Both the position numbers and the translations under genes were made by a program. A stretch of 64,000 nucleotides of DNA, from contig CM097883.1 of NCBI GenBank assembly GCA_044892505.1, positions 257,300,001 to 257,364,000 of the forward strand. Reading direction: 5' to 3'. The notes below the pieces were generated by a model. It ran no database searches, was not told the DNA's origin, and saw nothing but the letters and a program-made list of their open reading frames with translations. This DNA is from Schmidtea nova. Its lineage: Eukaryota. Below, in pieces: positions 2,330-56,500 of this stretch (positions are counted from its first letter, which is position 1; every line of letters begins with the position of its first letter).

Positions 2330-3888
2330 CAGAGGTGGATTTAGGTCAGTTGAGGCCCGGGGCGCAGAAAGAAATATTGGGCCCCCCAATAAAACGCGAG
2401 ACTAGGAAAATAAAAATACGTATTAATCAATAATATTTAAAAATAAAATATGTGTAATATAATTAACAGCATAACAATAATCACAAAGTTTGCTACTGAT
2501 AGTTGAACATATATAGGTTTTTAAAAGTATAATTATAATAAATTTATTAATAGTATCAGAGAAACAATCAAAAATGAGAACGTAAAAATCATAGAATTGT
2601 ATTTATATATAATAAATATTTCATAATTATGAAAATGTTTAAATAATTTTTTTCTTGCTTTTCGTTTTGCAAACTTATTAATTATCTCATCACAATCAAT
2701 AATTTCGAGTAAATCGTTCTCTATATATAAAATAGCCATATTATTAAGACTTTCCTCTGACATTGAATTTCTTAGATAAATTTTTCTGTAAAAATTATCT
2801 TTACAGAAGCCTTTGTAGTAAATGCGATCACCGTGTTTATAGACCGATTTAAATTTAGTTATATCGCCTACATTTTTTGGTTTATTTGCAATTAAAAATT
2901 CAATCATTTTATCACATAAAACGTTAGACCAGACAGCAATATCTTGTAATGAAACTTTGAATGGTATATATTCCGTTTGCGTTTCAACATTTTCTAATGG
3001 ATCTATATTTTTTTCTATTGGTTTTTCACCTGGTTGACTATTGAATGGTTCTTCATTTTTGTTATCATTGCTGCTTTCTATACCTTGATTTTCAACTTCA
3101 ACTAACTCTTTTCTTTGACTAATGAAAGCTCCTTGTTCTTCATTTTCATTGTTGCTCGAATTATGATGGCCTGAATGATCATGACCTGTAATAAATTTGT
3201 CCAATGCTCCTTTCAATTGGTTGCCAGCTTGCTCGCGTCTTTTTTTAATTTGTCTTTTTAGCTCCTGATAGATTTCGCTTCATTTTCCTGCTACCAAAGA
3301 AATGGAAATATAAAATTTAATAGTTTAAATGATTAAAATATTTGAGAAGGGATTTTGTGTTAAATATCAATAAATTAATGATTAATATAAATTAAAAATT
3401 TATTCATAAACTACGAAAAAATTCAATTTGTATTTTATTCATTCTTAAAAAACCAATTGAACCATTATAAAATTTTCAGATGAAAAAAAACTAATTGATA
3501 TTTTTAGAGCTAAAAATATTTAAAATTCAAACATTGAAATTTTTATTACTTTCTCGTATGTGTTTATATTTTGTTTTTATAAAGAGAGCAACATATTTAT
3601 CTTAAGCATTGTTTATCATTTATCATATGCATTTTAAATAAACGAACTATTAAATGCCGTATTTAGTTATAACTTATAACTTCTTGTTTCATTAAAACAT
3701 TTCTCATCAGTTTTACAGATCAGTATTTAAAAAATAATTTTAAAAAAGTAAATTGTATGTAATTGAAATTGCACATATGAAACCCAACTTGTCATTAAAA
3801 AAAGTGTAAAATTAGATATTTGCGGGGCCCCCTAGATGTCGGGGCCTGGGGCGCGCGCCCCCTGCGCCCTTGCGTAAATCCGCCTCTG
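2330..3888 (-). mobile_element. Internally deleted hAT DNA transposon
   Basis: TIRs CAGAGGTGGATTTA (2330) and TAAATCCGCCTCTG (ends 3888); 8-bp TSD ACCGTATC / ATCGTATC (7/8); GC-rich subterminal repeats. Confidence 0.9.
2533..3283 (-). pseudogene. hAT transposase remnant: N-terminus fused to C-terminal dimerisation region, catalytic core deleted
   Basis: ATG at 3283 (MKRNLSGAKK, then frameshift). N-terminal sequence runs directly into YLRNSMSEESLNNMAILYIENDLLEIIDCDEIINKFAKRKARK, a typical hAT C-terminus; junction near 2780. Confidence 0.8.
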
Positions 3889-10622: not shown

Positions 10623-11952
10623 CGGGATTTTGTCACCACGCGGTTTCAACCTACCCTAATTATATGTGAGCCAATTGTTACTGATTTACTAGTACAATCT
10701 TCATACCGATCAATAACATTTACTTCCTGAACAGGAATAATTGAAAATATTTCTAAGTAATAAAATAATAATTTCACGTGTAAAATATTTACTGATTATC
10801 TGTAACTAGCATGTATTTTCTTTAAAATTTCTTTCATTTATAATTTACATTAGCTTTAGTAAATTTATTTTTCTTTTTTTCGAGTTATATATGTAAATCA
10901 AAATATTGTTTTTTTCAAATTTAAATCTCATGATAAATTATAGTAAAATATGACATTTTGAAAAGTATTTCCCCGTTTCTAGAGTTATTTTTTTGAAAAA
11001 AATGTTAATTGAACATTTTAAAATGATTCATTAAATATAAATATTTTTTTTCATTAAATTTAAAACTGAATTCGTCGGATATGGCAATATATTCGGGTCA
11101 CTTTTGGACTGAGTGAAAATTTTTTTGGTCTTTGGAATTTAAATTATTGATAATATTTTGCTTCTAGATTCAAACAATGAAATGGTTATATAAAACAAAA
11201 AAGTACCTATTTTGTCTTCGCGGACACAGAAAGCATCATTTATGTATTTTTAAAATTGTATAATTAACAATGCGAATTAAGATATATTTAACCTTCATCA
11301 GTCCCTCAAAATAAGTATTACTAAAATCCCTTCGGTCAAAATAGGCCATATATGGATTTACATCAAAAAGCAGTAAATTTTATATTTTTTGGTAATTTAT
11401 TGTTAATAAATTCAAATAGAAAAGAACAAAATATTACACATAAATTCAATACAAAACATTTTCTTTGGATCAAAGTAGAGACGAGGGATTTATGAAGGTT
11501 AAAAACATATTTAATATTTGAATGGCAATATAATGTTGGAGTTTCACTCACTTTTGAATTAACAATCCAAAATGTCTTTTATAGCTCTTAATATTTATTC
11601 AAGTTAAATTTCAAAAATTTTGATTATTAATAATGATGTGAAACATTAATTTTTAATTTCCATATAAACAAGATGTTTTAATATCAAGAAAGTTTTATTG
11701 ATAATCAATAAAAACTTGACATATTGAAAATATATTTAACAATCGAAAAACACGTTTTCATGATGCATATCAAACAATAGAAAATAAAGATGACGGAAAC
11801 TGGTTTATCAATATTACAATCCAAAAATATAAGTGTGCTTAATTTAATTATTATTTAATTTAATTTCAATTGTTTTAATAGGCAGTTAATGTTATAGAAT
11901 AAATATTCAAAAACTCGTTAATTATTTTTACTACAAACTATCGCGGCCATCG

Positions 11953-12633
11953 ATGGAAATTTTGAAATATCTGGAAAAATTCGATGGAACCGACAATGTT
12001 GCAAGCTGGTTTGCTCAACTATAATCAATTGTAAAAAGGTTGAAGATAGAAACTATAGAAGTTTTTATGGCTATTCTTTTGAAAAGCGATGCATTTGCCG
12101 TCTACGAACATTTATCAGAAAAGGACAAGGCTAGTTTTGAAGCAATCGAGGATGCATTAGAAAAAGCTTTTTCTCCAAGTATGATTTTATCATACGAAAA
12201 AATGAGAAATTGTAGATGGACTGGAGGATCAGTGGATGTATTTTTGGCCGATCTAAGATTTCATGCAAGAGTGAATGAGAACTCTGTTAGGAATGCTTTT
12301 GTCTTAGGACTACCTAAAGACGTGTCGAGATTGTTGCAGGCTACTCCAAAGATTGATACTATGCCAATGGAGGATATTATTCAGATAACACGGGCAATGA
12401 TGAATACGAGAGTTCAAGACATTGAATGTGTCAACGTTGCATATAACAAAGTAAAACCTTGTTCTCATTGCGATAAGATTGACCACGTAGCTGAACCTTG
12501 TTTTAAGATGTTTGGTACAAGGTGTTGGTCTTGTAGCGGCACCGATCACATATCTAGAGTATGTCCAAATAACAATTCAAAAAACGACAACGTGGTAACA
12601 CTAACGCCGGTGTCTACTTCATTGAACCAGTAA
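11953..12633 (+). pseudogene. gag: gag with zinc-knuckle-like motifs (one early stop)
   Basis: MEILKYLEKFDGT...; CSHCDKIDHVAEPC and CWSCSGTDHISRVC. Confidence 0.85.
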
Positions 12634-15425
12634 TGGCGTTGCAAATAATCACAATTAATGTGGATGGGAGAGAGGCAAATGCTTTGATTGATTCCGGATG
12701 CTGAAGATCTGTTGTTTTGGCTTCGTTGGTAAGCAAGCAGTTGAGAAGAACGGAAGAGGTGATGATAGCAAATGGAACCTCTGTGTCTTGTTATTGTGAT
12801 ATATTGGTAAACTTGGTGATTAGAGGTATAGATTTACGAGTAAATTGTCTGGCTCTCGAAAAATTACCTTACGATATTGAGATGATCCTGGGCATGGATA
12901 TTATTGAAAGATTAGAGGGTGTCCTGATTAGTACAGATAGAGTCGTTTTTTCGAAAGAGAAGATATGTGTGCTGAGTGATAAATGTGTCACTAGGGCAAG
13001 TTCTTCTCCGAACGTCATTAATATTATAGACGAAGATTTCGAAGCTAGATTCGACAAGAAATGGGTCGTCAAATGGAAATGGAAGTCTGGACCAGCGATA
13101 TTGTGGAACAAAATTGCTTGTTATAAGATGGCAAAACGATATTCAAGCAACGTTTGATGCAGAGATGAGGCGTTGGATAGAAGAAGGATGGCTTGTAGCG
13201 GCCGAATCAAGCGTCGGTGGTACGATTCCAATAATGGCAGTGGATCAGTCGAACAAGAATAAAGTTCGACCGGTTATGGATTTCCGAGAATTGAATAAGT
13301 TCGTCAAGAGTCACACTAGGCAAAGTGACGTGTGTGGAGAGTGCGAAAGATGTGTAGAGATGTGATTATGCTCGACTTAAAGAATGCTTATTTACAGTTG
13401 CATGTCGATGAAGAATGTTGGAAGTATAAAAAAGGTATGCTATGACGATAAGTTTTACTATTTGACTAGACTGGGATTCGGGTTGAATGTAGCCCCAAAG
13501 ATTATGTCTAGTGTTTTGAAAAAGGTGTTGAGTTTACGAAGTGACATTGCTGAAGCGACAGATAGTTATATAGACGACATAATAGTAGACCAGTCATTAG
13601 TTTGCATCTCAAATGTTATAAATCATTTGCAGAAATATGAGTTAGAAGTGAAAGATCCAGAGAATTTCGATGATGCAAGAGTTTTAGGATTGCAAATAAC
13701 AATGCGTAACATGGATCGGATTTGGACAAGAGGTAATGAGCTTCCTGTCTTGAAGAGTGGGCAGGAAGTGTCGAGACGTCAATTATTTTCAATTTGTGGT
13801 CAATTGCTCGGTCACTATCCAGTAGCAAATTGGTTGCGAGTTGCGTGTGGTTTCATAAAACGTCACAGTAGTGGAGAAAAATTGGATGATAAAATTGGGC
13901 ATATTGCGCAAAAGATGTTAACTGACACTATTGATCGTGTTTCCAAAGACGACCCGGTGCGTGGCGAATGGCATGTGTCAGAACAACTTAACGGTGTAGT
14001 ATGGTGTGACGCAAGTAGTTTGGCCTTGGGTGTTTGTTTGGAAATTGGAGGTCATGTAGTTGAAGATGCTTCCTGGTTGAGGAAGAAGATTGATGTATGT
14101 CATATGAATGTAGCGGAGTTAGATGCCGTTATTAAAGGCTCAAATATAAGCCTAGCTTGGGGCCTAAAAGATATCTTAATAAAAACTGATTCAGCTACTG
14201 TGAAAAGTTGGGTTACCTCTATATTTTCCCTACAAGAAAGAGTACGTACACACGGAATATCAGAAATGTTAATTCAGCGGAGATTACAGATAATCAAGGA
14301 GTTGCAAGATAGATTCAATTTAGCTCTTTCGATAGAGTTAGTCTCTACATAGAGGAATAAAGCGGATATACTAACGAGAGTACCTAAGACGTGGTTGTAC
14401 TTGGTAAAGGCTGTAACATCTGTAGTATTTATAAGAATGGATGACTTAGTAAAGTCTCACAATGCTCATCATTTAGGCGTTGAAAAAACGTTGCATCTTG
14501 CTAAGAGAAAATTCCCAAATATTACTAAGAAAGACGTGTAAGATGTCATTAGCAAATGTGTAGAATGCAGATCTATTGATCCAGCACCGGTTACATGGAA
14601 GCACGGGAAGCTTGATGTCGAGGAAATTTGGAAGAGGATCGCGATTGACGTGACTCGCTATAAGGATAAAAGGTATTTAACAATTATCGATTGTGGACCG
14701 AGTTGGTTTGCAATTTGGAGGGAGATAGCTATCGAGGAAGTTGGAGTCATAATTCGAAATTTTGAGCAGATATTTAAGGAAAGAGGTTCACCACTAGAAA
14801 TACTCGTAGATATCGCTACATCCTTTCTATCTGGAGCGATGGATTCGATGTGCAAGAAGGGGGGGTTAGGCGCATGTTCAGATGTGCATATCGACCTGCT
14901 GGAAATGGGATAATCGAGCGTAACCATAGAACGATTAAGCGTATGGCAGCACGGTCTGGCGGAGAACCATTGGATATGGTTTATTGGTACAATGTGGCGT
15001 TAAGAGACGATGTTGATGACGATTTGTCTCATTCCGACCTAACGTTCAATTACGTATGGAGACACCCAGATGAAGCGGAACATGTCTTGACGGATCCAGC
15101 AGGCGGGTTTACTGTGGGAGAGGCGGTTTTTGTAAAACCTCCTGATGCAAGATATACTTCTCGGTGGAATGAAGGAAGAGTGACAAAAGTAAATTCATCT
15201 ACAAATTTTGAGATTGACGGTATGCCTCGTCATTTTTCCGACATAAGAAAAAAAGAGAATTCCACAGAGGACGAATTACAAATGCAAGACACTACTAAGG
15301 TCGCAGAGTTAGAAGTTGACGATTCAGTGCGTAGAAGTATAAGAGTACGAAATCCGCCACGTTACTTGGATGACTATAAACTGACGAGCAATATTGATGA
15401 CGACATCACGGGGAGATGTATTTAA
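12633..15425 (+). pseudogene. pol: pol (aspartic protease, RT, RNase H, integrase) with stops and frameshifts
   Basis: ALIDSG; RPVMDFRELN; LDLKNAY; TRLGFGLNVAP; YIDD; CDAS...NVAELDAV...TDS; HHCC zinc finger; IAIDVT...IIDCG...NGIIERNHRTIK. Confidence 0.9.
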
Positions 15426-16385
15426 TTTAATTATTATTTAATTTAATTTCAATTGTTTTAATTGGCAGTTAATGTTATAGATTAAATATTCAAAAACTTG
15501 TTAATTATTTTTACTACAATAAGATTCCAAAGAAAAAATAACACCGATTTCGAGAATAGATGAAGATAGATTGGCGAATAATTGTAGTTTAATAAGTGTT
15601 CATGATGTCAGTCTTTAGTGTTTTGGCTTTAAATTTTGATTCGTCTTTTGTAGTTTTTTGAATTTTTTTAAAAAGAAATATTTGACTTTGACCTTTGACC
15701 TTTGTACTTGAAATAAATTTTTAGTATTGTATCATCGAATATATAATCATAAATTTTTTGAGGTCGTCGAAAGAAAATTAAAGAATAGATAAAGATTTTA
15801 TGGTGGTTGCAATAAAATTGATGGTCACTTTATTTTGGTTATGACTAATCGATTATGTAAGTTTTTTTTGTTCGGGAGTCCACACTTATCCCTACTCTCA
15901 TATACCAAAAACTGCTTTTAAAGTAATGGTTCTCACCAATAGAGATTCTCTGGATAAGTTTGGAGATAATCATAAAAGAAGTTCGAATATTAAAATTAAA
16001 ACAAAGAAAATTAATTTATAAAAAGATGGCAAATGTATGTTACTAAATAATGCTTCAATAGGTGCATCTTCGTATAATACAGTATCGATAAATTAAGAGG
16101 AAAGGTTCTGATTTTTGAGGACAAGATCAGTTTCAAAAACATGATTTAATGCTTATAATGTAAAATATGGACACACGAGGTTTGTGGAGAATATCAAAAA
16201 CCTTAAAACTTTATTACTATCCTAATATACTTGATTTTTTCATAAATTTGCAAGTTCTTAAGTATTCAGGTTATATTACTTCAAAACCTAAAAAAGGTAC
16301 GATTTTGGAAACCAACCCCTTCAAATTACTACTACTGTTTTCCAAAATTGTACCTTTGGGTAAATTTCAAGGAGCGTGTATGTAA

Positions 16386-19283: not shown

Positions 19284-20243
19284 TTAAAAAGTTGAAACAA
19301 ATTTTGCTTTCTTTCCGAGATTTTTGATTCCAATCGGTGATTTTTTAAAAATTATTATCAACTTTCTAAACCGCTTAAACAACACTAAATGTGACAATGG
19401 AGTTATAAATGTAACAGTTGCTAATAAATCGTTTAAGTAGTAATAAAAACAAATAACGTCAAAAGCAACAAGATCAAAATTATGTAACACATATCCGATC
19501 ATTTCAATTAATAATGTAAAACTGTAAAAAACGGTTGATATCAAAGTTATGAGTGAATATTTATAAAACACCAAACTTCTTTTCTTTACAATTCTCAAAT
19601 CTTGTGCAATCATAGAATTCTTGGAGTTTTTGTAGAGATCTCTAGCGGAAAATATTCCAAATATTGTTAGAGTGAATATTGGAATGGAATAGAAAGGGAT
19701 GATGTTGAAAAAGAGGCTTACGTTAGTAGACCGCCACCAGCATGAATATGAAACAGTTTCATTAAAATAATTCATTTCGACCCCATAATCAAATATTACA
19801 GAAAATATCTCAATGAAAAAGGAAAAAATCAAAACCATTATTACTAGCATCAAATTAATATTTCTACTAATGCATTTGTACTTCAACGGATAAACAATGC
19901 AAACGAACTGGTCAAACGCCGACAAAATCATCATATAAATATTAATGGTGAGAAATAAATAAAATAATTGCAAATCATACCAAATGTAGCAATGGAACAT
20001 TGCATAAATATAATTGCTGATTTCCGATTCTTTTAAAAAATTCATAAAATATAAAACTAAAACTACCAAGCAGACAAACGTTCTCGTTTTGTTCATAACC
20101 GTCGCATTGTGCGAGGAAATTTTATACTGAAATAGAAATATCAACAGTGATAAATTCAGGATAAAATAAAAACAAATTAGTGCACTTCTGAAACTAAAGA
20201 ATAAAACACTATCAAGACAAAAATCACCGAGGACGAATTTCAT
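19284..20243 (-). CDS. Divergent class A (rhodopsin-like) GPCR, single exon, 319 aa
   Basis: Intact ATG..TAA with about seven hydrophobic segments. TM3 end SAFDQFVCIVYPLKY aligns to the DRY..I..PL motif, TM3 and ECL2 cysteines are present, and there is a helix-8-like KRFRK. Confidence 0.85.
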   Translation of the reverse strand: MKFVLGDFCLDSVLFFSFRSALICFYFILNLSLLIFLFQYKISSHNATVMNKTRTFVCLVVLVLYFMNFLKESEISNYIYAMFHCYIWYDLQLFYLFLTINIYMMILSAFDQFVCIVYPLKYKCISRNINLMLVIMVLIFSFFIEIFSVIFDYGVEMNYFNETVSYSCWWRSTNVSLFFNIIPFYSIPIFTLTIFGIFSARDLYKNSKNSMIAQDLRIVKKRSLVFYKYSLITLISTVFYSFTLLIEMIGYVLHNFDLVAFDVICFYYYLNDLLATVTFITPLSHLVLFKRFRKLIIIFKKSPIGIKNLGKKAKFVSTF

Positions 20244-23234
20244 TCTCCCACTTACATGTGGAGTCGTGCTGTCCGCAACGACAGTTATATCCCAATGGCA
20301 ATTCCCAATTATCTGTAATTGGCTACTTGATTTTCGATAAAAGGAAAATATTCATCATTTAGTAAAGGATTCTCATGTTTTTCTTTTAATTAACAGAAAG
20401 CTTTTTGAATTCACAATGGAAATATAATTTCTGAAATTAATTATGATAAACATCGGTTAGAAAGAAAATTGTCTCGAATTCATTTGATTGCTGAGAACAA
20501 ATGGGAACTCTTTTTCTATCGGTAATTAAAAACATTTTTGCAGTTTCATGAGATGAAACTCATTTTCTACAACAGTTGATAATTATTGCAAAAATGTTCT
20601 CATTATTGCAACTTTTTTTCAGGAAAAAACACATAAAATCGTTTTAAAGAAACTGACATCATACTAACTTTTAAGACGCCAGCACTTTTATTCGTAATGT
20701 TGAGTTATTGGGTTGGTAGTGAAGTTTAAACGTCACCAATCAAATTTCTGACTCCGAATTCAAGCTTTATTAATCAATAGAACAACAATTATAACAGGAA
20801 TATTTATTGATATCACAACTGGTTTCACAATTAGACTGGCACACTCAATCAATAACCTGAGGCAATTATACAGTGCTTATTACAACACTTATGTAAGGAC
20901 TAGCACTCATGTATAACCTCTGTCTAACGATTATCGAACACTGATTTAGATTTAATAATGGGTAACCAACTACTTGTTTTCTTTGCTTTGACTTGAAATT
21001 CGGCTTAAAAACCATTCAATAGATTTCTCAATAATCAATTTCTCAATAAACTTCTCTCAATCAATTTCTTAATAATTTTTTTGTCATAAAACTTCTGTTG
21101 CGAATTCTCGTCATAATAATTCTCCACAAACTTTTGTCTAAAGCTGGTGTCTTTCCCTTTTTACAGTTTGCCATTCTCCTGCCCTTGTGATGATTTGCTT
21201 TTTTCCTCATTCCTGCCTCTGACATTGCCCCTTTTCATTTTTAGCTCCGGTGTTACTTATAGCCATCCGGTACTCGGGATAATTTGCTTTTTCCCTTTTT
21301 ATCACTGGCATTTCCCAAATTTTTCACAGTTTCCGTGTTATCTTAGACAGCTGTCAAGATACCGATTTTGTTTTCATTTTTTGTTTTTTTGTTTTCGAAT
21401 TTTGAAATTCAATTTTGTTTTTTTGAACTTATTAATTATAAGTGACCTTACTCTGTTTTATTATTTTATTTCTTTTATTTTGTTACCCTTTACTCATTTC
21501 TCAAATCTTTGCTTTTCCGTTTTCTTCTACAAGTTCCGGAATGCTAGCTCAATCACCTATCGGTTTTCCCCCAATTTATTCTAGTTATTTATAATATTAT
21601 TTATTATTTAGGTATCCTCAACAGTATACATTATGTGATCTTGCTTTATTAAGTTCTGTTAACAATCTACAGATTTATTTATAAATTAATTTTTTCTCAT
21701 AATTAAAGTAAATTAAAAAGTTAAAAAATAAATCTACAAATCGTTATAAGATTTTTAATATCGTAGAGTATACGAAAAAGTGCGGATGTGTTCAAGGTTA
21801 GTATGATGTCAATTCTTTTAATATATAATATACTTTGTGACATTATTTAGATTTTTGAATAAAAAACTACTTTAAGAGAATATACCAAGACAAATAAAAT
21901 AAAATATCCAAATTGATAGAGGAGGTCTCCATAACGCTATATATATTTTATGTAAATATATACAACTTAGAAAGATACAACGTTTCTCTTTCTTTTGTTT
22001 GTATTCTTAATCATGGGTAACAAATAAAATATTATAAAATAAACAACAAAAAAGCATCGATTTTTTAAAATTATAAATTAAATCGATAATAATTATATAT
22101 TTGTCTAAACTTTCCGGTTAAAATGGTGACCGGTTAAACGGGTTTATACTGCATTTGTTTTTGTATTCATTATTTATCAAAGTCACATAGCCTGTGAAGT
22201 TTCCGCAGTGTGTTTTGATCACTTTATCTATAAACCACAAATAAATAAATAAATTCCCAAAATAGAAATAATATCAGTATTAAATTACTAATTAGAAAAA
22301 TACCATAATATAATAAATTAGAAATAAATATTATTTATTTTGACATTTAATAGTCATACATAAGGTTGAGACTAAAAAACCCAAGAAAATCCTGTTGCCT
22401 ACATTTCGACAGTAGGGTCGAGACAGTAGATGAGTATAAAAACCAAATGTTGTAAAGAAGGATGTGATGTTTAAGAAAGATGAAAAAAGAAAAGTGGAGT
22501 ACAGAAAATGGAGTACAAAAAATGGAGTACGATTGAAATAAATACATTTTATGTAGAGATGCTATGGGATTCAGGAGATTCAATCAGGGTAATGAGTGAG
22601 AAATGTTGGAGATTGATAGGCAGTCCAACATTAATGATAAGCAAAATACGATTGAGTGCAGTATTTTCAAAAGAAGACGAGAAATTTCTCGGAAGCGTTA
22701 AAATCGTTGCAAAATGGAACAACCAATGTCGATAATTGAATGTTATTATTGTCAGAAAAATTCATCCAGATGTTGAGATTTACAGAATCTCAACTTGATT
22801 ATTTTATGTAAATAAATAAATCAACACTGGTTCAACAAATTTTATTTAATCAAAATAAATATAACAATTAATCAAATAAATAATATTACATCCACCAGTT
22901 TAATTATCTTTGTTTTTGTGTTTTATATGTTATAAATGTGATGTGTAGAGCTGAATGAGGCTCAGAGCTCAAACTACTGTATGCTCGATTTTAAATTTAC
23001 AATAGCTGATAACAACTATGAATTTCTTCTTAATCTAAGATTTTATGGGTGATAACTGAGAATTCACTCAGTTTATATAGTGAATTTTGGTTGATCTTCA
23101 TTTTAATTGAAAAGGGTTGTTATTTGTCAATAATGTCTGTTTTTAATCAACAATTTTTCTATTTTTAAAAGTTCAAAACAACAATTACTATATTTAGATT
23201 CTAAATATAGTAATTGTTCACTAGGAATGGATTT

Positions 23235-26261: not shown

Positions 26262-26348
26262 TAAATATACCTTGTTTCAAAATTTAAAATCAAATTGGTA
26301 AAAGTAAATAAATAAATAATTTTAATTAAAAACTATATATTTAATAAG

Positions 26349-29300
26349 TGTGCTTAATTTAATTATTATTATTGTTATTATTATATTTAATTATTGTTTA
26401 ATTTAATTTCAGTTGTTTTAATATTGATTGTATTTGAAATAGATTTTAAAATTTTAGAAGCAGTTGATGTTATATAATAAATATTCCAAAATTTGTTAAT
26501 TATTTTTACTTCAAGCTATCGCGGCCATCGATGGAAATTTTGAAATATCTGGAAAAATTCGATGGAACCGGCAATGTTGCAAGCTGGTTTGCTCAACTCA
26601 AATCAATTGTAAAGATGTTGAAGATAGAAACTATAGAAATTTTTATACCTATTCTTTTGAAAGGTGATACATATGTTGTCTACGAACATTTATCAGAAAA
26701 GGACAAGGCTAGTTTTGAGGCAATCGAGAATGCATTAGAAAAAGCTTTTTCTCCAAGTATGTTTTTATCATACGAAAAAATGAGAAATTGTAGATGGACT
26801 GGAGGATCAGTGGATGTATTTTTGGCCGATCTAAGATTTCATGCAAGAGTGAATGAGAACTCCGTTAGGAACGCTTTTGTCGTAGGACTACCTAAAGACG
26901 TGTCGAGATTGTTGCAGGCTACTCCAAAGATTGATACTATGCCAATGGAGGATATTGTTTAGATAACACGGGCAATAATAAATACGAGAGTTCAAGACAT
27001 TGAATGCATCAACGTTGTATATAACAAAGTAAAACGTTGTACTCATTGCGATAAGATTGAGCACTTAGCTGAACCTTGTTTTAAGAAGTTTGGTACAAGG
27101 TGTTGGTCTTGTAGCGGCACCAATCACATATCTAGAGTATATCCAAATAACAATTCAAAAAACGACAACGTGGTAACACTAACGCCGGTGTCTACTCCAT
27201 TGAACCAGTAATGGCGTTGCAAATAATCACAATTAATGTGGATGGGAGAGAGGCAAATGCTTTGATTGATTCCGGATGCTGAAGATCTGTTGTTTTGGCT
27301 TCGTTGGTAAGCAAACAGTTGAGAAGAACGGACGAGGTGATGATAGCAAATAGAACCTCTGTGTCGTGTTATTGTGATATATTGGTAAACTTGGTGATTA
27401 GAGGTATAGATTTACGAGTAAATTGTCTAGCTCTCGAAAACTTACCTTACAATATTGAGATGATCATGGGCATGGATATTATTGGAAGATTAGGAGGTGT
27501 CCTGATTAGTACAGATGGAGTCGATTTTCGAAAGAGAAGGTATGTGTGCTGAGTGATAAATGTGTCACTGGGGCAAGTTCTTCTCCGAGCGTCATCAATA
27601 TTATAGACGAAGATTTCGAAACTAGATTCGACAAGAAATGGGTTGTCAAATGGAAATGGAAGTCTGGATCAGCGATATTGTGGAACAAGATTGCTTGTTA
27701 TTAGATGGCATACGATTTTCAAGCACCGTTTGATGCAGAGATGAGGCGTTGGATAGAGAAAGGATGGCTTGTACCGGCCGAATCAAGAGTCGGTGGTGGA
27801 TCAGCTGAACAAGAATAAAGTTCGACCTGTTATGGATTTCCGAGAATTGAATAAGTTCGTCAAGAGTCACACTGAGCAAAGTGACGTGTGTGGAGAGTCA
27901 TTGAGACAATGGCGAAAGATGTGTAGAGATGTTATTATGCTCGACTTAAAGAATGCATATTTACAGTTGAATGTCGATGAAGAATGTTGGAAGTATCAAA
28001 AGGTATGCTATGACGATAAGTTTTACTATTTGACTAGACTGGGATTCGGGTTGAATGTAGCCCCAAAGATCATGTCTAGTGTTTTGAAAAAGGTGTTAAG
28101 TCTACGAAGTGACATTGCTGAAGCGACAGATAATTATATAGACGACATAATAGTAGACCAGTCATTAGTTTGCGTCTCGGATGTTATAAATCATTTGCAG
28201 AAATATGGGTTAGAAGTGAAAGATCCAGAGAAGTTCGATGATGCAAGAGTTTTAGGATTGCAAATAACAATGCGTAACATGGATTGGATTTGGACAAGAG
28301 GTAATGAGCTTCCTGTCTTGAAGAGTGGGCAGGAAGTGTCGAGACGTCAATTATTTTCAATTTGTGGTCAATTGCTCGGTCACTATCTAGTAGCAAATTG
28401 GTTGCGAGTTGCGTGCGGTTTCATAAAACGTCACAGTAGTGGAGAAAAATTGGATGATAAAATTGGGCAAATTGCGCAAAAGATGTTAACTGACACTATT
28501 GCTCGTGTTTCCAAAGACGACCCGGTGCGTGGCGAATGGCATGTGTCAGAACAACTTAACGGTGTTGTATGGTGTGACGCAAGTAGTTTGGCCTTGGGTG
28601 TTTGTTTGGAAATTGGAGGTCATGTAGTTGAAGATGCGTCCTGGTTGAGGAAGAAGATTGATGTATGTCATATTAATGTAGCCGAGCTAGATGCCGTTAT
28701 TAAAGGCATAAATGTAAGTCTAGCTTGAGGCCTGAAAGATATCTTAATAAAAACAGATTCAGCCACTGTGAAATGTTGGGTTACTTCTATATTGTCCAAT
28801 CAAGAAAGAGTACGTACACACGGAATATCAGAGATGTTAATTCAGGGGAGATTACAGATTATCAAGGAGTTGCAAACAAGTTTCAATTTAGCTCTTTCGA
28901 TAGAGTTAGTATCTACAGAGAGGAACAAAGCGGATATACTAACGAGAGTACCTAAGACGTGGTTGTACTTGGTAAAAGCTGTAACATCTGTAGTAATTAG
29001 AAGAATGGATGACTTAGTAAAGTCTCACAATGCTCATCATTTAGGCGTTGAAAGAACGTTGCATCTTGCTAAGAGAAAATTCCCAAATATTACTAAGAAA
29101 GACGTGCAAGATCCAGCACCGGTTACATCGAAGCACGGGAAGCTTGATGTCGAGGTAAATTGGAAGAGGATCGCGATTGACGTGACTCACTATAAGGATA
29201 AAAGGTATTTAACAATTATCGATTGTGAACCGAGTTGGTTTGCAATTTGGAGGGAGATAACTAGCGAGGAAGTTGGAGTTATAATTCGAAATTTTGAGCA

Positions 29301-30115
29301 GATTTTTAGGGAAAGAGGTTCACCAGTAGAAATACTCGTAGATAACGATACATCCTTTAGATCTGGAGTGATGAATTCGATGTGCAAGAAGGGGGGGGGG
29401 TTAGGCGCATGTTCAGATGTGCATATCGACCTGCTGTAAATGGGATAATCGAGCGGAACCATAGAACGATTAAGCGTATGGCAGCACGGTCTGGCGGAGA
29501 ACCATTGGATATGGTTTATTGGTACAATGTGGCGTTAAGAGACGATGTTGATGAGGACTTGTCTCATTCCGACCTAACGTTCAATAACGTATGGAGACAC
29601 CCAGATGAATTGGAAGATGTCTTGACGGATCCAGAAGGCGGGTTTACTGTGGAGAGGCGGTTTTTGTAAAACCTCCTGATGCAAGATGTACTTCTCGGTG
29701 GAATGAAGGAAGAGTGACAAAAGTAAATTCATCTACAAATTTTGAGATTGACGGTATGCCTCGTCATTTTTCCGACATAAGTAAAAAAGAGAATTCCACA
29801 GAGGACGAATTCCAAATGCAAGACACTACCGAGGTCGCAGAGTAAGAAGTTGACGATTCAGTGCGTAGAAGTATAAGAGTACGAAATCCGCCACGTTACT
29901 TGGATGACTATGAACTGACGAGCGATATTGATGACGACATCACGGGGAGATGTGCTTAATTTAATTATTATTATTGTTATTATTATATTTAATTATTGTT
30001 TAATTTAATTTCAGTTGTTTTAATATTGATTGTATTTGAAATAGATTTTAAAATTTTAGAAGCAGTTGATGTTATATAATAAATATTCCAAAATTTGTTA
30101 ATTATTTTTACTACA
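26349..30115 (+). mobile_element. Compact LTR retrotransposon copy 2 (same family as copy 1), 3767 bp, defective
   Basis: 165-bp LTRs at 26349-26513 and 29951-30115 (1 mismatch seen); TSD ATAAG; gag from 26531 and pol to ~29959 with many lesions. Confidence 0.95.
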
Positions 30116-31283
30116 ATAAGAATGCAATAAAATAAGCTTGAAATTGACATGTAATTTTGATTAATATCAATTTTTTTTATTTTAGAGTTTTATTTTAAAA
30201 ATATTAAGGTTAAACTTACACATACCCAAAAACTGGATAATCTTTGAACCAATCTACTATTTCATCAATATTATTGACATGTTTAAACATAGTGAACTAA
30301 GTTAATGAGTTCAAAAATTTTGTTGTTATCCGTTGCATAGCAACATTGGTACTGTAACAAATGGGTGGATATCCGCAAAAAGTGAGCTTCGGATAGGTCA
30401 GAACTATAATTGACCGAATATCGTGGTTGGTTCCAATGGCGACCGATAAAGGTACAATGCCAATTTTTATCTGTCCATATTTTATTCAAAACATTCATTG
30501 TAAATGGCTCAATCTATAGCCGAGAAATTAATATGATTAAACAAAATTATCATGAGAAATCATTGATTTAATTTCCTCTGGCTATTCAATTTGAGTTCGC
30601 CTTCCCTCGAAGTGTATTTGTAAAGCAAATATGTTATAATTTTAAAATTCCAATTTATGTCACTGCACAGTTACGGAGTTCAAAAATTTTCAATCATTCA
30701 AAAGAATATCTCGGGCATGTGTAGTTTGCGAGATGAATATAAAGAAGAAATAAGAGTACGTTACCTAATTATATTTTTTATAAACTTTATGTGAGATTTA
30801 TTTCTTCATTATCCTTGAGTTTTCAGAATTTTTACCAGAAATAATTAATTAATTTATAAAATATAAGATATTGGTAATCTTTTCAATTTGCAATAATTGT
30901 ATGATTTTTAAATCAACATTATATCATTATATCATTCCTGTTTGACATAGTAATCATAATGATAACTTCTTTAAAAATTAACAATACACAATAAATACAT
31001 AAAATTGTTGATAACTTTCTCGGCCTAAATTATTTTTTTAATATTCAATCAGGATCCCATTAATACTTTTATGCTCTTTAACATGGTAGTTTTATTCATA
31101 CACAACTTGCTAGAAAAATGGGAATGTATTATATTTGCAATCGAATGATAGAGTAATCCCTTACGTTAAAGATTTAAAAAAGATTTATTTACTAGGTAAA
31201 ACTAAAATAATACGAGACTTATTTATTATGTTAACATTTTGTTGAGAATTTAATAACTTCACGTTCTCGATACGCGGATATAG

Positions 31284-34200
31284 TGTGATAATTAATTATT
31301 ATGTTTGTTTGAATAATGTAAAAAACGTTATTGTTGATTTTATGAATTCTTAATAAAGTCATTCTTGTGCGTTCGACTTCAAGCTATCGCGGATAAATTC
31401 ATGGAATTTAGTAAATATATTAAAAAATTTGATGGAACGGGTGACGTGACGATATGGTTCTCCCAAGTAAGAACGATAGCTCTCATGCAAAAGATTGAAA
31501 ACCTGGAGATGTTTCTGCCGATACTGATGAAAGGAGACGCATATGCGGTGTATCAACATCTCAGCGATGAAGTCAGAGGAAGTTTCATCAAGACCGAAGC
31601 AGCAATGAAGAGAGCCTTCTCTATGTCAATGTTTCTTGCCTTTGAGAAATTGAAGAATTGATCATGGAACAACGAGTCTGTCGATGTTTATCTGGCCGAA
31701 CTAATATCTCTGGCTAAGTTATCTGGGGTCAATGATGCCGTTATCAGATGTTTAATCGTTACTGGACTTCCAGCGTGGCAATGGATGCGGTCGTACAGAT
31801 AGCTCGAGCTATGTTAAGTAATGCAGTTTCTCAAAAAAGTTGTATGCTGGGAGTAAAAGAAAAAAGAATTGCCAATCCTAATGACCAAATGTGTTCGTTT
31901 TGTGGAAAGAAAGGGCACAATGAAGATTAATGTTTCCGAAAAAGCAAACAATGTTGGATATGTGGTGATAAAGCCCAACTCGCGCGATCGTACCTAAAGA
32001 AACAGACGGGAAACGCTATTGGAGTAACACGTGCGCCAGTTTTCACTCCGGGAAAGCAATAATGGCGCTGCAGACTGTCGTTGTAACTGTCAACGGAAGG
32101 ACTTCCAAAGCTTTAATAGATTCAGGTTGTACCCAATCTATTATTTTGTCCTCGTTGGACAGCAGTCCGTATGGGAAGAGTGAGAGTGTGCTGGTGGCTG
32201 ATGGATCATTGGCCAAAAGTTTGGGAACCGTCGAGGTTAACATTTTTATTAGAAAGACAAGTCTGCGAGTGGTCTGTCTGGTGATTGAAAACCTTCCAAG
32301 AGATTTTGGTGTAATTTTGGGAATGGATGTTATAGGAATGCTCGGCGGGCTGAATATATCAAGACAAGGGGTATTGCTTCCTTTGGCCAGCGCCGTGGGG
32401 AGAAATTCCGATTTCTTGAGGGCAGACGAACGTCATACCGAGTCTCTGGAAATTAGAGATGAAGACTTTCAAGCCGATTTCCTTTCCGACAATTGGACAG
32501 TGAGCTGGAAATGGAAAAATCAACCTACTGAACTTGGTAATACATGTGCCAACTATGGAATTAAACCAAAGCTAGGCAATGAATTCAACGCGGAAATCAC
32601 AGAATACATTAGAAACAGTTGGTTAACGCCTTATGAAGGAAACTCTGATGGTATACTACCATTAATGGCAATTAATCAGTCTAACAAAGGAAAAATACGA
32701 CCAGTACTCGACTATCGTGAACTGAATAAATATGTAACGAGCCACACGGGTCAAAGTGAAGCTTGCGACGAATCTTTACGACGTTGGCGAAGATTCGTGG
32801 AGAAAGTCGAGATGCTCGATCTGAGGAAAGCCTATCTACAAATACATGTAAATCCCGATCTGTGAGATTTTCAAAAAGTCAGATTTAAAGGAAAGATATA
32901 TGCTTTGACAAGATTGGGTTTCGGCCTCAATGTAGCACCGAAAATAATGTCTGCCATAGTGCGAAGAGTGTTAGGATTGCGCAAAGACATTAAAGAGGCA
33001 ACCGACAGTTATATTGACGATATCATCGTAAATACGTCAAAAGTACAATTAGACGAAGTTGTGCGTCATCTGGCAAAATACGGGCTAGCAGTTAAAACTC
33101 CGGAAAAATTCGATACTTCTAAAGTTTTGGGATTACAGATCTCTAGATGCAAGGAAGGCAGATATTGAAGGAGAGGAAACGTAATCAATGAGATGGGACC
33201 ATACGAAGCGATGACGAGGAGGGAGCTGTTTTCCTTGTGCGGTCAGCTAGTCGGTCACTACCCGGTTGCTGGCTGGTTGCGGATTGCATGTAGTTATGTT
33301 AAGTGTCAGAGTACCGGTTCAACGTGGGAAGATACAATTTTAGATTATGCTTCCATGATAATAGCTGAAATTATCGAACTCGTTAAGAAAGATGATCCAG
33401 TTCGTGGAGTTTGGCATGTTTCACCGACAAAAGATGGAGTTGTATGGTGTGATGCAAGCAATCTGGCTCTTGTAGTTTGTCTCAAAATCAACGGAGAGAT
33501 CGTGGAGGATGCCGCTTGGCTGAGAAAGACAGACGACACAGCGCATATAAACGTGGCTGAACTCGATGCTGTAATTAAAGGAATTAATCTCGCGATTAAG
33601 TGGGATCTGTCGTCGATAATCGTGAAATCAGATTCTGCAACGGTCCAAAGTTGGCTGGGGTCATTACTGACAGATAGTCATCGAGTAAAAACTTATGGAT
33701 CTTCCGAGATGATAATTCGTAGGCGTCTACAAATTGTTCACGAACTTCAACTGGCATACAACTTAAAGATAGCCGTGGAGTTTGTCCCGACCGAGAAAAA
33801 CAAGGCCGACATTTTAACTAGTGTCAAGAAAGCTTGGCTTACATGGGCTAAACAAATAAGTTGTTCTACTATATCGATATCCGACAGGATAAGGAAGTGC
33901 CTAGAGGCGCATCACTTCGGAGTGGATCGAACTCTGTATTTTGTAAGGAAGTTGCTTCCTAACGTATCTTGTGGAGCTGTACAAGGTGTGATATCCAACT
34001 GTATTAAGTGTCGAACGATAGATCCGGCACCTGTAAGATGGAAACATGGAAATTTGGCGGTGAAGTGTAATTGGACCAGATTGGCGTTAGACGTGACACA
34101 CTACCGGAATAAGCGTTATTTGACGTGTATCGACTGCGGACCGAGTAGATTCGCAATATGGAGATAGATTTGTAACGAGGATGCTGTGACCATTACTAGA

Positions 34201-34954
34201 ATCTGTGAACAAATATTCAGAGAACGCGGACCTCCGTGCCAGCTGCTCATGGATAATGGCAGTTCATTTAGGTCTCGTCAATTAGAGGAATTATGCGCAA
34301 AGTGGGGTGTTGGTTGTATTTTTCGATGCGCTTACCGACCATCGGGAAACTGAATTGTTGAGAGGAACCACAGGACTGTGAAAAGAATGGCGGCCCGGAC
34401 GGAAGGGGACCCACTTGACATGGTTTACTGGTTCAACATGAGCTCCAATGGCGACTTTGAAGCGCCTTCGCGACAACTATTTACAAACGACTGGAAAGAT
34501 ATGCAAGAAGTGGAAATCGGGAATGACGAAATTCTGAGTCGTTATGCTAGAGGAGATAAGGTATTCTGTAAGCCGCCGAATGCAAGATGTACAAGTGTTT
34601 GGACGGAGGGTACCATCACAAACGTTCACTCGTCCACGAATATCGAGGTGGATGGTGTCCCCAGGCAAATAGCTGACATCAGACAGGTTGAGCCGACTGA
34701 CACGACGGGAGAAGAGCGAACTATTGAAAATAATGGTCAACCTTCGACTGAAACGTCAACCGATAGGCAACAAAGAAACCGATACGTACCAGCATACCTA
34801 CAAGATTATATTCTCGGCGACGACGCGCTTGATGATGATGTTGAAATCACAGGGGAATGTGATAATTAATTATTATGTTTGTTTGAATAATGTAAAAAAC
34901 GTTATTGTTGATTTTATGAATTCTTAATAAATTCATCTTGTGCGTTCGACTTCA
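31284..34954 (+). mobile_element. Compact LTR retrotransposon copy 3 (related, distinct family), 3671 bp, defective
   Basis: LTRs at 31284-31381 and 34858-34954 (1 substitution, 1 indel); TSD TATAG; gag 31401-32062 and pol 32062-34869 (LIDSG, YIDD, CDAS, INVAELDAV, WTRLALDVT) with in-frame stops. Confidence 0.95.
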
Positions 34955-51469: not shown

Positions 51470-51780
51470 GATATGGGTGTATTGCACATTTATTTCATTT
51501 GGATTACACTTTTATTATTTTATTAATATTATTATATGAAATTTATAAGGTGTATGTTTTTGTTAGTATTGCACTTGTATTCCACTCAGATTGTACTTAT
51601 ATTGCCTTTTTGTTATTTTATTAATATTATTATATAAAATTAATGTGGTATTAATGTCTTTGTTAGTATAACACTTGTATAGCATTTTTGTTACTTTATT
51701 TTAATTTTTTTGTTATTATTTGAAATTGATGTGGTGTGTGTCTTTGTTATTATTACACATATGTTGCACGTAAAACTAAA
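51470..51780 (+). repeat. Degenerate AT-rich minisatellite (GTATTGCAC-containing units); related array at ~55770-56070
   Basis: Recurrent GTATTGCAC(A/T)TG...TTTTGTTATTT...ATTATT...TGTTAGT units at both loci. Confidence 0.7.
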
Positions 51781-52247: not shown

Positions 52248-55042
52248 CGTATTCCGACAATCCGCCAACACGACAATCCAGCAAGTACGACAATTCGCCA
52301 AACGACAATCCGCCAACACTAAAAAATTGGCCAACGCTGACATTTATAAAAAATATATTTGTAGGTCATCATATTAAAATTAATTCACATGTACTTGTTT
52401 AAAAGTTTTTTTTGTCCTTTGTAGTACCGTAAAATTTGAAAACAGTTAACTAAGCTAGAAAACTCAAGTCCTTTGTTGTGTATAGCTCAATGGTAAAATT
52501 TATCTAATCAATTTTTGAAGAAAAAGATGATTAAAAAACCCAACAGAATTTGTTTTTATTAAAATTATTTATTTTATACTTTAACATTTTTAAACACAAA
52601 TTAATGAAATGAAAAACAAAAAACTGTTTGTAAATATATTGACAAATTGTTAAAATCACGTTGCATGGATTATTACGATATAGTTCATCTAATAACTTAT
52701 TCTGACAAATGCATAAATCCAAAAACTTCCTGAACATAGGCAAGTTTGTCACCTCATTGAGAATAGTTTTGACACAAATGAATGACGTTTTCATTGGTCC
52801 ATATGTACTGAGTGCTTTGCTTTTTCTTGTATTTTCCAACATGTATTTCATGAAGTTTTAATCGCTCAGCTTGTTCCAAACTTGCAGTTTAGTCAAAAAT
52901 TTCCACATTGTTGGATTCTATTGGCCCATCATGACTCTGAAACCATTGTGACAACCCTATAAAGAATTGTTGGTTCGTGGAAGTTGCGACAATGTTCTGT
53001 TATACATATTCCACTTTTCGATTGGAAAGTTTGGTGCAGTTCTTCTATTTCCACTTCTCAGGCGACTAATGTAAAAGTCTTCAAAATAATCTGTAATTTT
53101 TCGGTAGTTTTCATCGATGTCAAAGGTAATTTGCTCAAATGTTTCAACAACATCATCAATTGGTATGAAGGCAAGAGCACACAACGACTTGATTAACTTT
53201 CGAAATGATTTTTTTTCGACGTATTCTGTTGCCAAACCTTTAGCTTGAACATTTCTCCACATCGATTGACACAGATGAAAGAAACAAAAAGACAGTTCGG
53301 TGTCTGGCAGGGCTTCTTCAATGGCATTAGACAGTCCAAGCTCAAAATCCACCATAAAAGATTTTGGTGAAAAATTAAGATTGGGTTGATCAGGCAAACA
53401 GTTTTTCACCAAAGTCATTAGACGATCATATGTACATCCCTTCTTGTTTGGGAGAAGCACATATAGCAGAGGCATGGAGACGCCCATTACAATCCCATGA
53501 ATTGTGAGTAATTGGAAGTAGAGAGAAGGGGCAACATTGAAAGTTCCATCAGCAAACAGGTGTAGAGCAGTAAACATTTGAATTAAAAATGCTTGGGTTG
53601 CAAATCCAACAATTCTCTGTGGATCTTCTTTTCCCGTATCAAATGCAATCCAGTTTGTGTCATCGTTGTTCTTCAGAAACCGTTCTGGAACATCAAAGTC
53701 ACGTGTCTTAGGAGGATTGTTGTTGATAGGGTCACGATGCCGTTGAATATCTCTGGCAATTGAGGAGGATTTTGGCAATTGAGGAGGATTTTGGCACTTG
53801 AGACAGACTTTCTTCGTCAAGAGTCCGCAATTCACTATAAAGCTCTTTCGTAGATTTTTCAGATGTTTGTGCTTTTTGTTTGATTTGACTCCTCAGTTTT
53901 TTAACACTTATAATTGCTGGTTCTGGTTGATGAGAATGATGACCACTTTCTACAAATTCTCCAGATGTAGTTACTCGTAGTCGACCAGTGCACTTTCTTG
54001 TATAATAAAGTTGACATTTGTGATAAAAAATTGATCTGCTCTTGTTAATGTTGTCACAATAAAAAATGTTCGAGTTGCAGATTGGCATCAGTTTTCCCAT
54101 GTCCGAAACCAGGGTATCTAAACCTGCAACTTCATAAAGAGATGCTGGAACATTCAGCTTAAAGTTTGTTTTTACGACATCTGGTTTTGGTGCCAAATTG
54201 GAATTTGGTTGTGTCGGTAAGACTCTGTTCAACATTTCTCCAGTGTCAGTTTCTTCTTTGGTTAAAGTGATCTCCAATATAGAACTGACATCTTCATTCA
54301 TTAACAAAGTTGGTGGTATCCTTTGGAGATCTTGGTCAACTTGTGCTGAATTTAAATGTACATCAACTTGATTGATTTCACTGGACTGGTCCATGTAACC
54401 TTGAGCTCCTTTTCCTTTCTTTTGTCGCTTTTTTGCCGGAGATTGTTTTGGACTAAAGATCATTTTTGGTTTTCTTGTACGCTTAAAGGGAAGCGTATTA
54501 TCCATCTTTTTTAAATGAAAATGTTTTTGAAAAAATTATGGTGTGAAAACAACGTCGGAATAAAACTTTTAAAACTTGGTGTCTGTTCCGGTTCACTGTT
54601 CAATTGTAAATGTAATATTAATTTAAAACTATAACATTGCAGAATTGTTTAATTAAGTTTAAGTAATTTTAATATTAACTCGCAAAATGTTAATTAATTA
54701 TTTGTTGCAATTAAATTGAAAATTAATATTTACCTCTCAGCCAGTTAAATTGTTTAAATATTTAATTAAAATTTTATATTAAACAATTACTAGTTGATTC
54801 TTATCTTTCAGCGGAGAATTTATTATTAAAATTTTAAAAATATAATAAATTTAAAATGTATGTATGTTAAAACAAAAATTTATCGACTTTTTGGCAGATT
54901 GTCGCTTTGGCGGATTGTCGCTTTGGTGGATTGTCGCTTTGTACTATTTGGCGGATTGTCATTTGGCGAATTGTCGTTTGGCGGATTGTCGCCAGCCTAT
55001 TAATGATTTGGCGATTGTCGATTGGCGGATTGTCGTACAACC
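52248..55042 (-). mobile_element. Mutator/MULE DNA transposon
   Basis: Both ends are built of inverted tandem (CGACAATCCGCCAA)n repeats, with MULE transposase inside and 9-bp flanking duplications (swapped with the second copy). Confidence 0.9.
52700..54505 (-). pseudogene. MULE transposase (FLYWCH-like finger + MULE DDE domain)
   Basis: KCQLYYTRKCTGRL...HHSH; LFADGTFNVAP..FQLLTIH; FMVDFELG; FCFFHLCQSMW; RTNNSL*GCHN. Frameshift from a 19-bp tandem duplication (~53754-53791) plus a TAG at 52957. The 3' end is approximate. Confidence 0.9.
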
Positions 55043-56500
55043 ATCTTTTCATTATAATGACTTTTGACATTTACTAACTAATGTTTAAGGTCATCTTGAC
55101 TTCTCTGTAATGCATAATTTATTTTTATATTTTATTATCAAATTATACTTATCAATATAATCGTGTAATTCAAGTAATTCACATCCTACTTTTGATTATT
55201 TTCTGATTAATTCATTTTGTAATTTAAGACTGTAATTTGTATCTTTTGAGTTTAATCTATTCTCATATTCGTGAATTATTCATTTATTAATTAATCTTTA
55301 ATAAATATCAAAATCATAGGTCATATATCAATCAAATTCTTTTAATATGAAATCTTCTGTTGACATCTTAATTTTCTTCTTATATATTTTCTTCTTATTA
55401 TTAATTTCTTTACTATTACCGCCTATGAATAATATTTTTATAATAATTGTTATTATTTTGTACCTGTTATAAGTAGGATGAAATGAGTGAACAATGACTC
55501 ATCGTTTTTTCAAAAAAAGTCCGAAATTAATTAGGTTGAGACATAATGTTGGTCAATGTCATTTAAACAAAGACAATTATAGACTATAATGTTGTGAGGT
55601 CACGGTGACTCATCATCTTTCGAAAATTTCTTTTTTTCAGTGACTCCCCCTAAAAAAGAAAATTTTACAAATTTTTTCTGTGACACCACTTCTATAGATC
55701 GAGAACCAATGTCTCAGAATATAAATTATAATAGGGACGTTGCTTTAGTCGGAAGTGGACCTTGAAGTATTTGTTAGTATTGCACTTGTATTGTATTTTT
55801 GTTATTTATTATTTGATAAATATTATTATTTGAAATTGACGTGGGTGTATTTATTTGTTAGTCATGCACATGTGTTGCACTTGGATTGAATTTTTGTTAT
55901 TTTATTATTATTATTTGAATTTAATGTGGGAATATGTATTTATTAGTCGTCTAGATGTGCTGTACATGTATTGCACTTGGATTACATTTTTAATATTTTA
56001 TAATTATAATTATTTGAAGTAAATGTAAGTGTATGTCTTTGTTAGAATTTCACATGTATTGAACAAGTATGTGTTTATTTGAAAATTTTAAGTTATTTTT
56101 AGAAAAAATATGAAGTTATTTTAAAAAGTTTAGTGAAAGCTATTGTCATTTAAGTATTTTTGTTAAAAGAAATATGATCAAGTAAAAATACTAGATAATA
56201 ATGAGCTTTAAAGACCAAAAACCATAACAAAGTGGGTACTGCTAGCAACGTTCTGTTAGGATGGTTCTACTTTAAAGGTTTAATTAATATATTTTAAGTC
56301 ATTTGACAATATATATTTTCAAAGTAGTATAAAGAGAAGCTATTGGTAAAATCTGTCCTTTCATCATTATCAACCAGTTATTTTGAAATTCAGTTTATTT
56401 CAAAATACTTTTTTATATTACTGTCAATTTTTATTGCTTTCAAACCAAAAAATAATCACGTACAAACAGTCATGTATATAGGCTAGTAAATGGTAAAATC

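Follow-up and report, generated by a model that had tools for sequence, protein, structure and literature searches.

What primes DNA synthesis in an LTR retrotransposon whose 5' LTR is followed by a complement of a tRNA 5' end, and not by the TGG expected for priming by a tRNA 3' CCA end? The question was raised by three elements in the window (the whole stretch of DNA that was analysed, 64,000 nucleotides), which a preliminary description had assigned to two LTR families with a common motif after the 5' LTR. Priming by the tRNA 3' end is the route described in PMC7879559 and in part of the text of PMC7472051. Priming by half-molecules of tRNA-Met or tRNA-Ile and self-priming are described in passages of PMC6317226, where Osser, Bryco and Bianca are the Ty1/copia elements given for half-tRNA priming.

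The three elements and their LTR-adjacent site

The three LTR elements were 3.67-3.77 kb long (11834-15518, 26349-30115 and 31284-34954, all on the forward strand). Each was bounded by TG...CA LTRs and a 5-bp target duplication and contained a purine tract, and all were interrupted by stops and frameshifts. LTR ends were set by alignment of the 5' and 3' LTRs and by the target duplications ATAAG, ATAAG and TATAG in elements 1, 2 and 3, respectively. In element 1, the 102-bp 5' LTR (TG...CA, 11834-11935, ATAAG upstream) was followed by the putative primer-binding site AACTATCGCGGC (11936-11947), a complement of tRNA-Phe nt 1-12 with 1 mismatch. Its internal region (11953-15416) held gag with a CCHC knuckle and pol and was interrupted by stops and frameshifts; pol was ordered protease (PR), RT, a putative thumb matching DUF7047, RNase H and integrase, and the purine tract adjoined the 3' LTR (15417-15518), after which ATAAG was repeated. 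Element 2 consisted of a 165-bp 5' LTR (26349-26513, ATAAG upstream), the site AGCTATCGCGGC (26514-26525), which complements tRNA-Phe nt 1-12 exactly, a broken gag-pol of the family shared with element 1 (26531-29950), and a 3' LTR with 1 difference from the 5' LTR (29951-30115), then ATAAG. Element 3 had a 98-bp 5' LTR (31284-31381, TATAG upstream), the site AGCTATCGCGGA (31382-31393; 11/12 complementary, the mismatch lying opposite tRNA G1), a broken gag-pol of a second family (31401-34857) and a 3' LTR (34858-34954), then TATAG.

In all three elements the site began at the base directly 3' of the terminal CA of the 5' LTR, so that the LTR alignment placed the motif at 11936, 26514 and 31382, as first described; TGG did not occur after the LTR in any of them. 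The division into two families also held, since elements 1 and 2 shared 91-97% DNA identity and element 3 only 62% (54% at the protein level in the RNase H region). Sequences with at most one mismatch to the 12-mer occurred 4 times in the window versus 0.36 expected, and at least 4 were obtained in 0 of 100 shuffles; the fourth match (14727) fell within the part of element 1 that encodes the integrase. No tRNA gene was predicted in the window by ARAGORN. The upstream copies of the target duplications lay at 11829-11833, 26344-26348 and 31279-31283; ATAAG was common to elements 1 and 2 despite their different flanks, and TATAG belonged to element 3. The duplications of other copies were AT-rich but varied, indicating that there is no strict target site. 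Both LTRs were found in 16 host elements, with clear 5-bp duplications in 10 of the 16.

A site of 11-12 nt adjacent to the LTR resembles that of Tf1 in passages of PMC4600332, according to which Tf1, Tj1 and sushi use a short LTR-abutting site that pairs with an RNA 5' end, a cut being needed for a 3' OH. Self-priming of this type was weighed, together with a chance likeness to a tRNA. However, Tf1 pairs with its own transcript, whereas the partner here would be a host tRNA acting in trans and the LTR lacks a complement. The longest complementary stretch was 4 nt in the three window LTRs, which agrees with the earlier report that the complement was absent there. It was also no longer than 4 nt in 16/16 host elements (those with both LTRs out of 23 examined), and in 8 metagenome elements it did not exceed 7 nt. 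Unlike those of Tf1, Tj1 and sushi, the proteins were not chromovirus-like (no RT_RNaseH match). Further, sites matched two different tRNA 5' ends exactly, which argues against both self-priming and chance. At the level of sequence, self-priming can be regarded as excluded, and the two explanations together appear highly improbable.

Matching tRNA genes and conservation of the site

Host tRNA-Phe(GAA) genes arranged in tandem started with GCCGCGATAGCT, and the site is the exact complement of their nt 1-12. The sequence GCCGCGATAGCTCAG had 2511 matches across the host genome, and the places listed form a 240-bp tandem array. ARAGORN was applied to array loci L001 and L149 only, and the units of L001 were tRNA-Phe(GAA) with their first base exactly at the GCCGCGATAGCTCAG motif; a host tRNA with the predicted 5' end is thus present. 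That the site is the complement of some other small RNA is now unlikely. The site pairs with the 5' acceptor strand, U8, A9 and the first D-stem bases of tRNA-Phe, with a computed duplex energy of -23.8 kcal/mol for the element 2 site; tRNA C13 would pair with G, but the terminal base of the LTR is A. The array with the 240-bp unit lay at G000:C1:566.9-567.2 Mb (L001-L010 and L149), and one unit was read as having the anticodon AAA. A minor tRNA-Phe variant, GCCACGA (G4A), was represented by 49 genes in the host genome.

The tRNA might instead be packaged or anchored by the site, with DNA synthesis starting from another 3' end, such as the CCA end reached by way of a split site, or from a protein. 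Split primer sites are known from Ty3, which speaks for this reading. By contrast, the complement of the tRNA-Phe 3' end (first 8 nt) was present in 0/16 elements, the best 12-nt match to that end in the window elements had 4 mismatches, and the site stands exactly where minus-strand synthesis must start. We consider packaging or anchoring improbable.

The host, an AT-rich animal and probably a planarian, carries hundreds of element copies, and CAAGCTATCGCGG occurred 720 times genome-wide versus once for the reversed control. Copies chosen regardless of the site gave the same picture. When the best 30 of 150 gag matches were inspected (elements 1 and 2 among them), the site was found 5-6 nt upstream of the start codon in 30/30; 17 were exact, 11 had one mismatch and 2 had two. 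A bryozoan RT-RNase H query returned 76 scored places in the host genome, and 40 of the first 41 were taken, one apparent duplicate being skipped. The site preceded gag in 39 of these 40 copies, which belonged to five families, and the remaining copy lacked the gag start; 35 of the 39 sites were exact, 3 had one mismatch and 1 had two. In 30 of the 720 pattern loci, the 12th base, which lies outside the pattern, was C in 29 and the 13th base varied, showing that conservation ends opposite tRNA G1. Two sites 3615 bp apart in L154 (G000:C1:4057884 and 4061499) marked tandem elements with one common LTR, and L155, L157, L159 and L164 were internally deleted to 1.5-2.9 kb with both LTRs and the site retained. 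Variation within the host was examined in the first 100 of 171 listed family-1 sites. The site was exact in 72 of them, and four single CpG-decay variants were about equally frequent (4, 5, 2 and 4); these within-host variants look like ordinary CpG decay. Copy-back from the minor variant GCCACGA was considered and found no support, there being no excess of matching sites among the family-1 variants.

A protein-based scan of metagenome contigs yielded 78 loci from the best 80 of 116 confirmed. Forty-two of the 78 began too close to the RNase H match to cover gag; of the other 36, 3 began within gag, 3 were 5'-truncated in RT, 1 broke off within the site (the 8 nt that were left fitted) and 29 reached the gag start. 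The site was found at the same position in 29/29 of these relatives, which, with the 39/40 genome copies in five families, bears out the suggestion that the motif is conserved across families. The pattern AGCTA-NNNN-GGC fitted 27 of the 29, L090 carrying a substitution and L138 a one-base deletion; the invariance of AGCTA and GGC is partly built in, because the locating pattern fixed both. The rows are not independent, 7 of them forming one tight clade. Of the 18 contigs tested, 5 had a 3' LTR that ended at the same CA and was followed by unrelated flank, confirming the zero spacer in those 5; among the other 13, 3 were collapsed assemblies and 10 had no 3' LTR. No relatives of the lineage were found in viral contigs or prokaryote genomes.

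Variation between hosts was almost entirely opposite tRNA nt 4-7. The 28 aligned rows comprised AGCTATTTCGGC (9), AGCTATCTAGGC (7), AGCTATCGCGGC (5), AGCTATCACGGC (2), AGCTACCTCGGC (2) and three singles; L103, L131 and L098 carried the variants AGCTACCTCGGC and AGCTATCCCGGC. The variant AGCTATTTCGGC matches the end of a northern probe for the 5' part of Drosophila tRNA-Phe(GAA) given in a passage of PMC7038984, in line with the likeness to the Drosophila tRNA-Phe 5' end noted at the outset. A tRNA-Phe(GAA) starting with GCCTAGATAGCT was found in L276, a record unlinked to the hosts of that variant. In the relative L127, the site complemented nt 1-12 of tRNA-Lys(CTT) (GCCCGGCTAGCT) in the same register, which likely reflects a primer switch from tRNA-Phe to tRNA-Lys(CTT). 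ARAGORN identified GCCCGGCTAGCT as nt 1-12 of tRNA-Lys(CTT) in the host genome. Genes for this tRNA stood in tandem at G000:C2:333.38-333.50 Mb (L282), in units of about 739, 1567 and 1924 bp. The tRNA assignment of the metagenome sites is inferred, because the tRNA check covers this genome only and the layout GCC-NNNN-TAGCT also begins tRNA-Thr, -Val, -Met, -Lys and others (39 viral-contig matches).

Whether the site follows the host or the ancestry of the element was addressed with a tree of RT, RNase H and integrase (RT-RH-IN; 26 rows, 612 columns, 7 near-duplicates omitted: L101, L105, L115, L119, L132, L139 and L148). A single clade of the five host families with one common site was rejected on this alignment (AU p = 0.004); on an earlier RNase H-only tree with 33 rows and 341 columns it was not rejected (p = 0.064). 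Seven site types required 10 changes on the RT-RH-IN tree. Well-supported sister pairs from different records differed in their site (L085/L110, L090/L133, and L128 versus the TCTAG clade). These results fit a site that has repeatedly been tuned to a host RNA.

Proteins and relationships of the lineage

Gag comprised a capsid-like match and a CCHC knuckle in an overlapping frame, and pol a protease, a weak RVT_1 match, DUF7047, an RVT_3-type RNase H and an integrase. Gag together with the order PR-RT-RH-IN was present, with integrase after RT-RH. Named homologues came from Octopus, Hydra, Watersipora, Nymphon, Trichuris, barnacles, crabs and a sea slug, and a sister group (P0309, P0316 and P0318-P0320), whose gag-pol is fused and measures 1340-1420 aa, included proteins of the sponge Sycon ciliatum. 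No homologue listed matched PF17917 (RT_RNaseH) or PF17919. Canonical gypsy elements in the host genome scored about 140 bits on PF17917, and the lineage profile scored only about 27 bits on canonical gypsy RT of the same genome; loci L213-L242 carried canonical gypsy RNase H matches in open frames that were very long (about 5000 aa at most), as is typical of giant elements. The GPY/F motif was found in 1 of 72 rows. The RT catalytic motif was Y[IVL]DD, with Y in the first position in 69 and F in 4 of 73 rows. The lineage that these elements make up is discrete and deeply diverged, has DUF7047 but no RT_RNaseH, and ranges from sponges to flatworm-like hosts.

The predicted RT-RNase H structure (pLDDT 94) aligned end to end with CaMV RT (TM 0.72, 17% identity), indicating that a tether is absent. 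By position and fold in this model, DUF7047 would be the RT thumb. It was helical at L178:446-502 aa (window region 33169-34167) and marked the whole lineage, for which it could serve as a diagnostic domain. In a fold search, the RTs of MMLV, CaMV, Ty3 and foamy virus were tied (Z 22-23, 12-18% identity). The closest free RNase H structures were archaeal, with Z 17.5 and 15.2 versus 13.3 for HIV; this likeness may only reflect absence of the basic protrusion. A phmmer search of PDB sequences matched HIV protease only, and an Atlas search returned generic RT clusters only.

With Metaviridae (Ty3-gypsy; PMC7879559), the elements shared the arrangement LTR-gag-pol-LTR, PR-RT-RH-IN, the CCHC knuckle, TG...CA ends, 5-bp duplications and the purine tract; unlike in that family, the site was not complementary to a tRNA 3' end. 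For the flatworm Saci-2/lennie elements, passages of PMC4558846 and PMC12471100 report the use of tRNA-Leu 3' ends and of related tRNAs. Troyka, or the Kuafuorterviruses, is likewise a deep-branching LTR lineage of animals that has been neglected; as set out in PMC12440569 and PMC11673190, it has the gypsy order and lacks both a tether and the GPF/Y motif. However, the same papers give it CG...CG ends, 3-bp duplications, an xADD motif (IADD/VADD/LADD) and a knuckle of the form CX2CX8-10HX4C, whereas our elements had TG...CA ends, 5-bp duplications, Y[IVL]DD and a standard knuckle. Identity with Troyka or Kuafuorterviridae was ruled out by LTR ends, duplication length and RT motif. In motif, the RT-RNase H may resemble the DIRS type; unlike DIRS, the elements have a DDE integrase and a protease, and no tyrosine recombinase was found in the host genome. 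The lineage may be one of the MolGy or PolGy clades, which, like Cigr-1 and Saci-2, are invertebrate gypsy clades; the main text of PMC6238403 contains 0 occurrences of PBS, primer binding or tRNA.

Proposed priming by the first nucleotides of a tRNA

The elements are very probably primed by the first 10-12 nt of a tRNA, judging from the position and pairing of the site. On balance, we favour a front piece of tRNA-Phe(GAA) as the primer, freed by the RNase H of the element itself. The site abuts the LTR end, covers the tRNA from nt 12 to nt 1 and stops there, and between hosts it changes opposite tRNA nt 4-7 and once fits tRNA-Lys(CTT). In the proposed course of events, the site would invade the 5' acceptor strand and the first D-stem bases of the tRNA, gaining about -24 kcal/mol for 12 bp. 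Minus-strand synthesis must begin at the LTR edge, so that the primer 3' OH would be at tRNA nt 12 or nt 10; in the latter case the first two bases would form an integrase-trimmed spacer. Such a two-base spacer is present in Ty3. A cut is required because an intact tRNA has no 3' end at nt 10-12. With chances close to even, RT-RNase H would cleave the edge of the RNA-RNA duplex and so create a 10-12-nt primer that ends in a 3' OH. The D-E-D-D acidic residues of RNase H were kept in 72-73 of 73 rows, and the RNase HI of Sulfolobus cleaves double-stranded RNA. The cut may be likened to that in Tf1 self-priming, reportedly described by Levin in 1996, in which the Tf1 RNase H domain is said to make the cut, but here the tRNA would act in trans. 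Plus-strand synthesis would then run off the 5' end of the primer, and this run-off would explain both the sharp 12-nt limit and the match to the host tRNA. Tf1 requires a complex structure; here, pairing beyond nt 12 was rejected as a conserved feature: some was seen in element 3, and overall, for tRNA nt 13-26 with the LTR end in 35 elements, a fraction of 0.69 of shuffle sets did as well.

The same 10-12-nt piece could also prime if a host nuclease produced it, by a cut in the D-arm or by trimming of a longer 5' fragment down to the part that is paired. The half-tRNA primers of copia and Ty5 are believed to be made in this way. All sequence evidence for pairing with the tRNA 5' end counts equally for a host nuclease, no Tf1-like helper structure was found, and the very large tRNA-Phe family (2511 matches) means that fragments could be plentiful. 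However, the usual 5' tRNA fragments extend into the D-loop or beyond, and the identical zero-spacer register across hosts and two tRNA species would better fit an enzyme of the element that measures the duplex. Production by a host nuclease is unlikely in our estimate, and it is this constant register that leads us to favour the element RNase H as the cutter.

Drosophila copia and yeast Ty5 use half-tRNA primers, and the copia site pairs near the anticodon arm. The present elements resemble these systems in that the primer would be a 5' fragment of a host tRNA rather than its CCA end. They differ in that copia systems use a half-molecule of tRNA-Met or tRNA-Ile, whereas nt 1-12 of tRNA-Phe, and once of tRNA-Lys, would be used here; further, the domain order is that of gypsy and not that of copia. 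The distinction from copia-type priming drawn in the preliminary description is upheld, as neither the copia domain order nor a half tRNA-Met/Ile site was present. From sequence comparison, the elements are best read as a poorly classified group in which priming by a tRNA fragment takes a new form. More tentatively, they may represent an ancient, unnamed animal lineage at superfamily level, from sponges to bilaterians, in which the first 12 nt of an intact tRNA are annealed and the duplex is cut by the element's own RNase H, as a fourth way of priming.

The literature searched, which did not extend to Repbase Reports, subscription journals and most supplements, yielded no description of a site complementary to tRNA nt 1-12; that a brief prior note on such a site exists is rather doubtful. 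Among the matches listed for the literal motif sequences, none concerned retrotransposons by title or abstract, and no tRNA-Phe motif was found in the Schistosoma ncRNA supplement (PMC2770079). If true, priming by tRNA nt 1-12 would add a fourth route for LTR elements and could plausibly connect, in evolution, tRNA priming with Tf1 self-priming, which likewise involves a short RNA 5' end and cleavage by RNase H. Very short 5' tRNA fragments would gain a concrete function, and 5' tRNA fragments, rather than 3' ones, would be predicted to be capable of silencing the elements. Pipelines that scan tRNA 3' ends only, as in a passage of PMC13524379, will score the lineage as having no primer site; the group is large and poorly classified, and the motif after the LTR is an easy marker of it.

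Elsewhere in the window, two open frames on the reverse strand, at 19284-20351 (355 aa) and 2533-3279 (248 aa), had no Pfam match. Three further regions on the reverse strand were transposase-related: a DUF4371 transposase-like frame (62127-63341), a fragment of a Tc5/CENP-B-type transposase (58937-59557) and a MULE transposase with a weak FLYWCH match (52957-54535), which was accompanied on both sides by related sub-terminal repeats (51478-51734 and 55765-56113).
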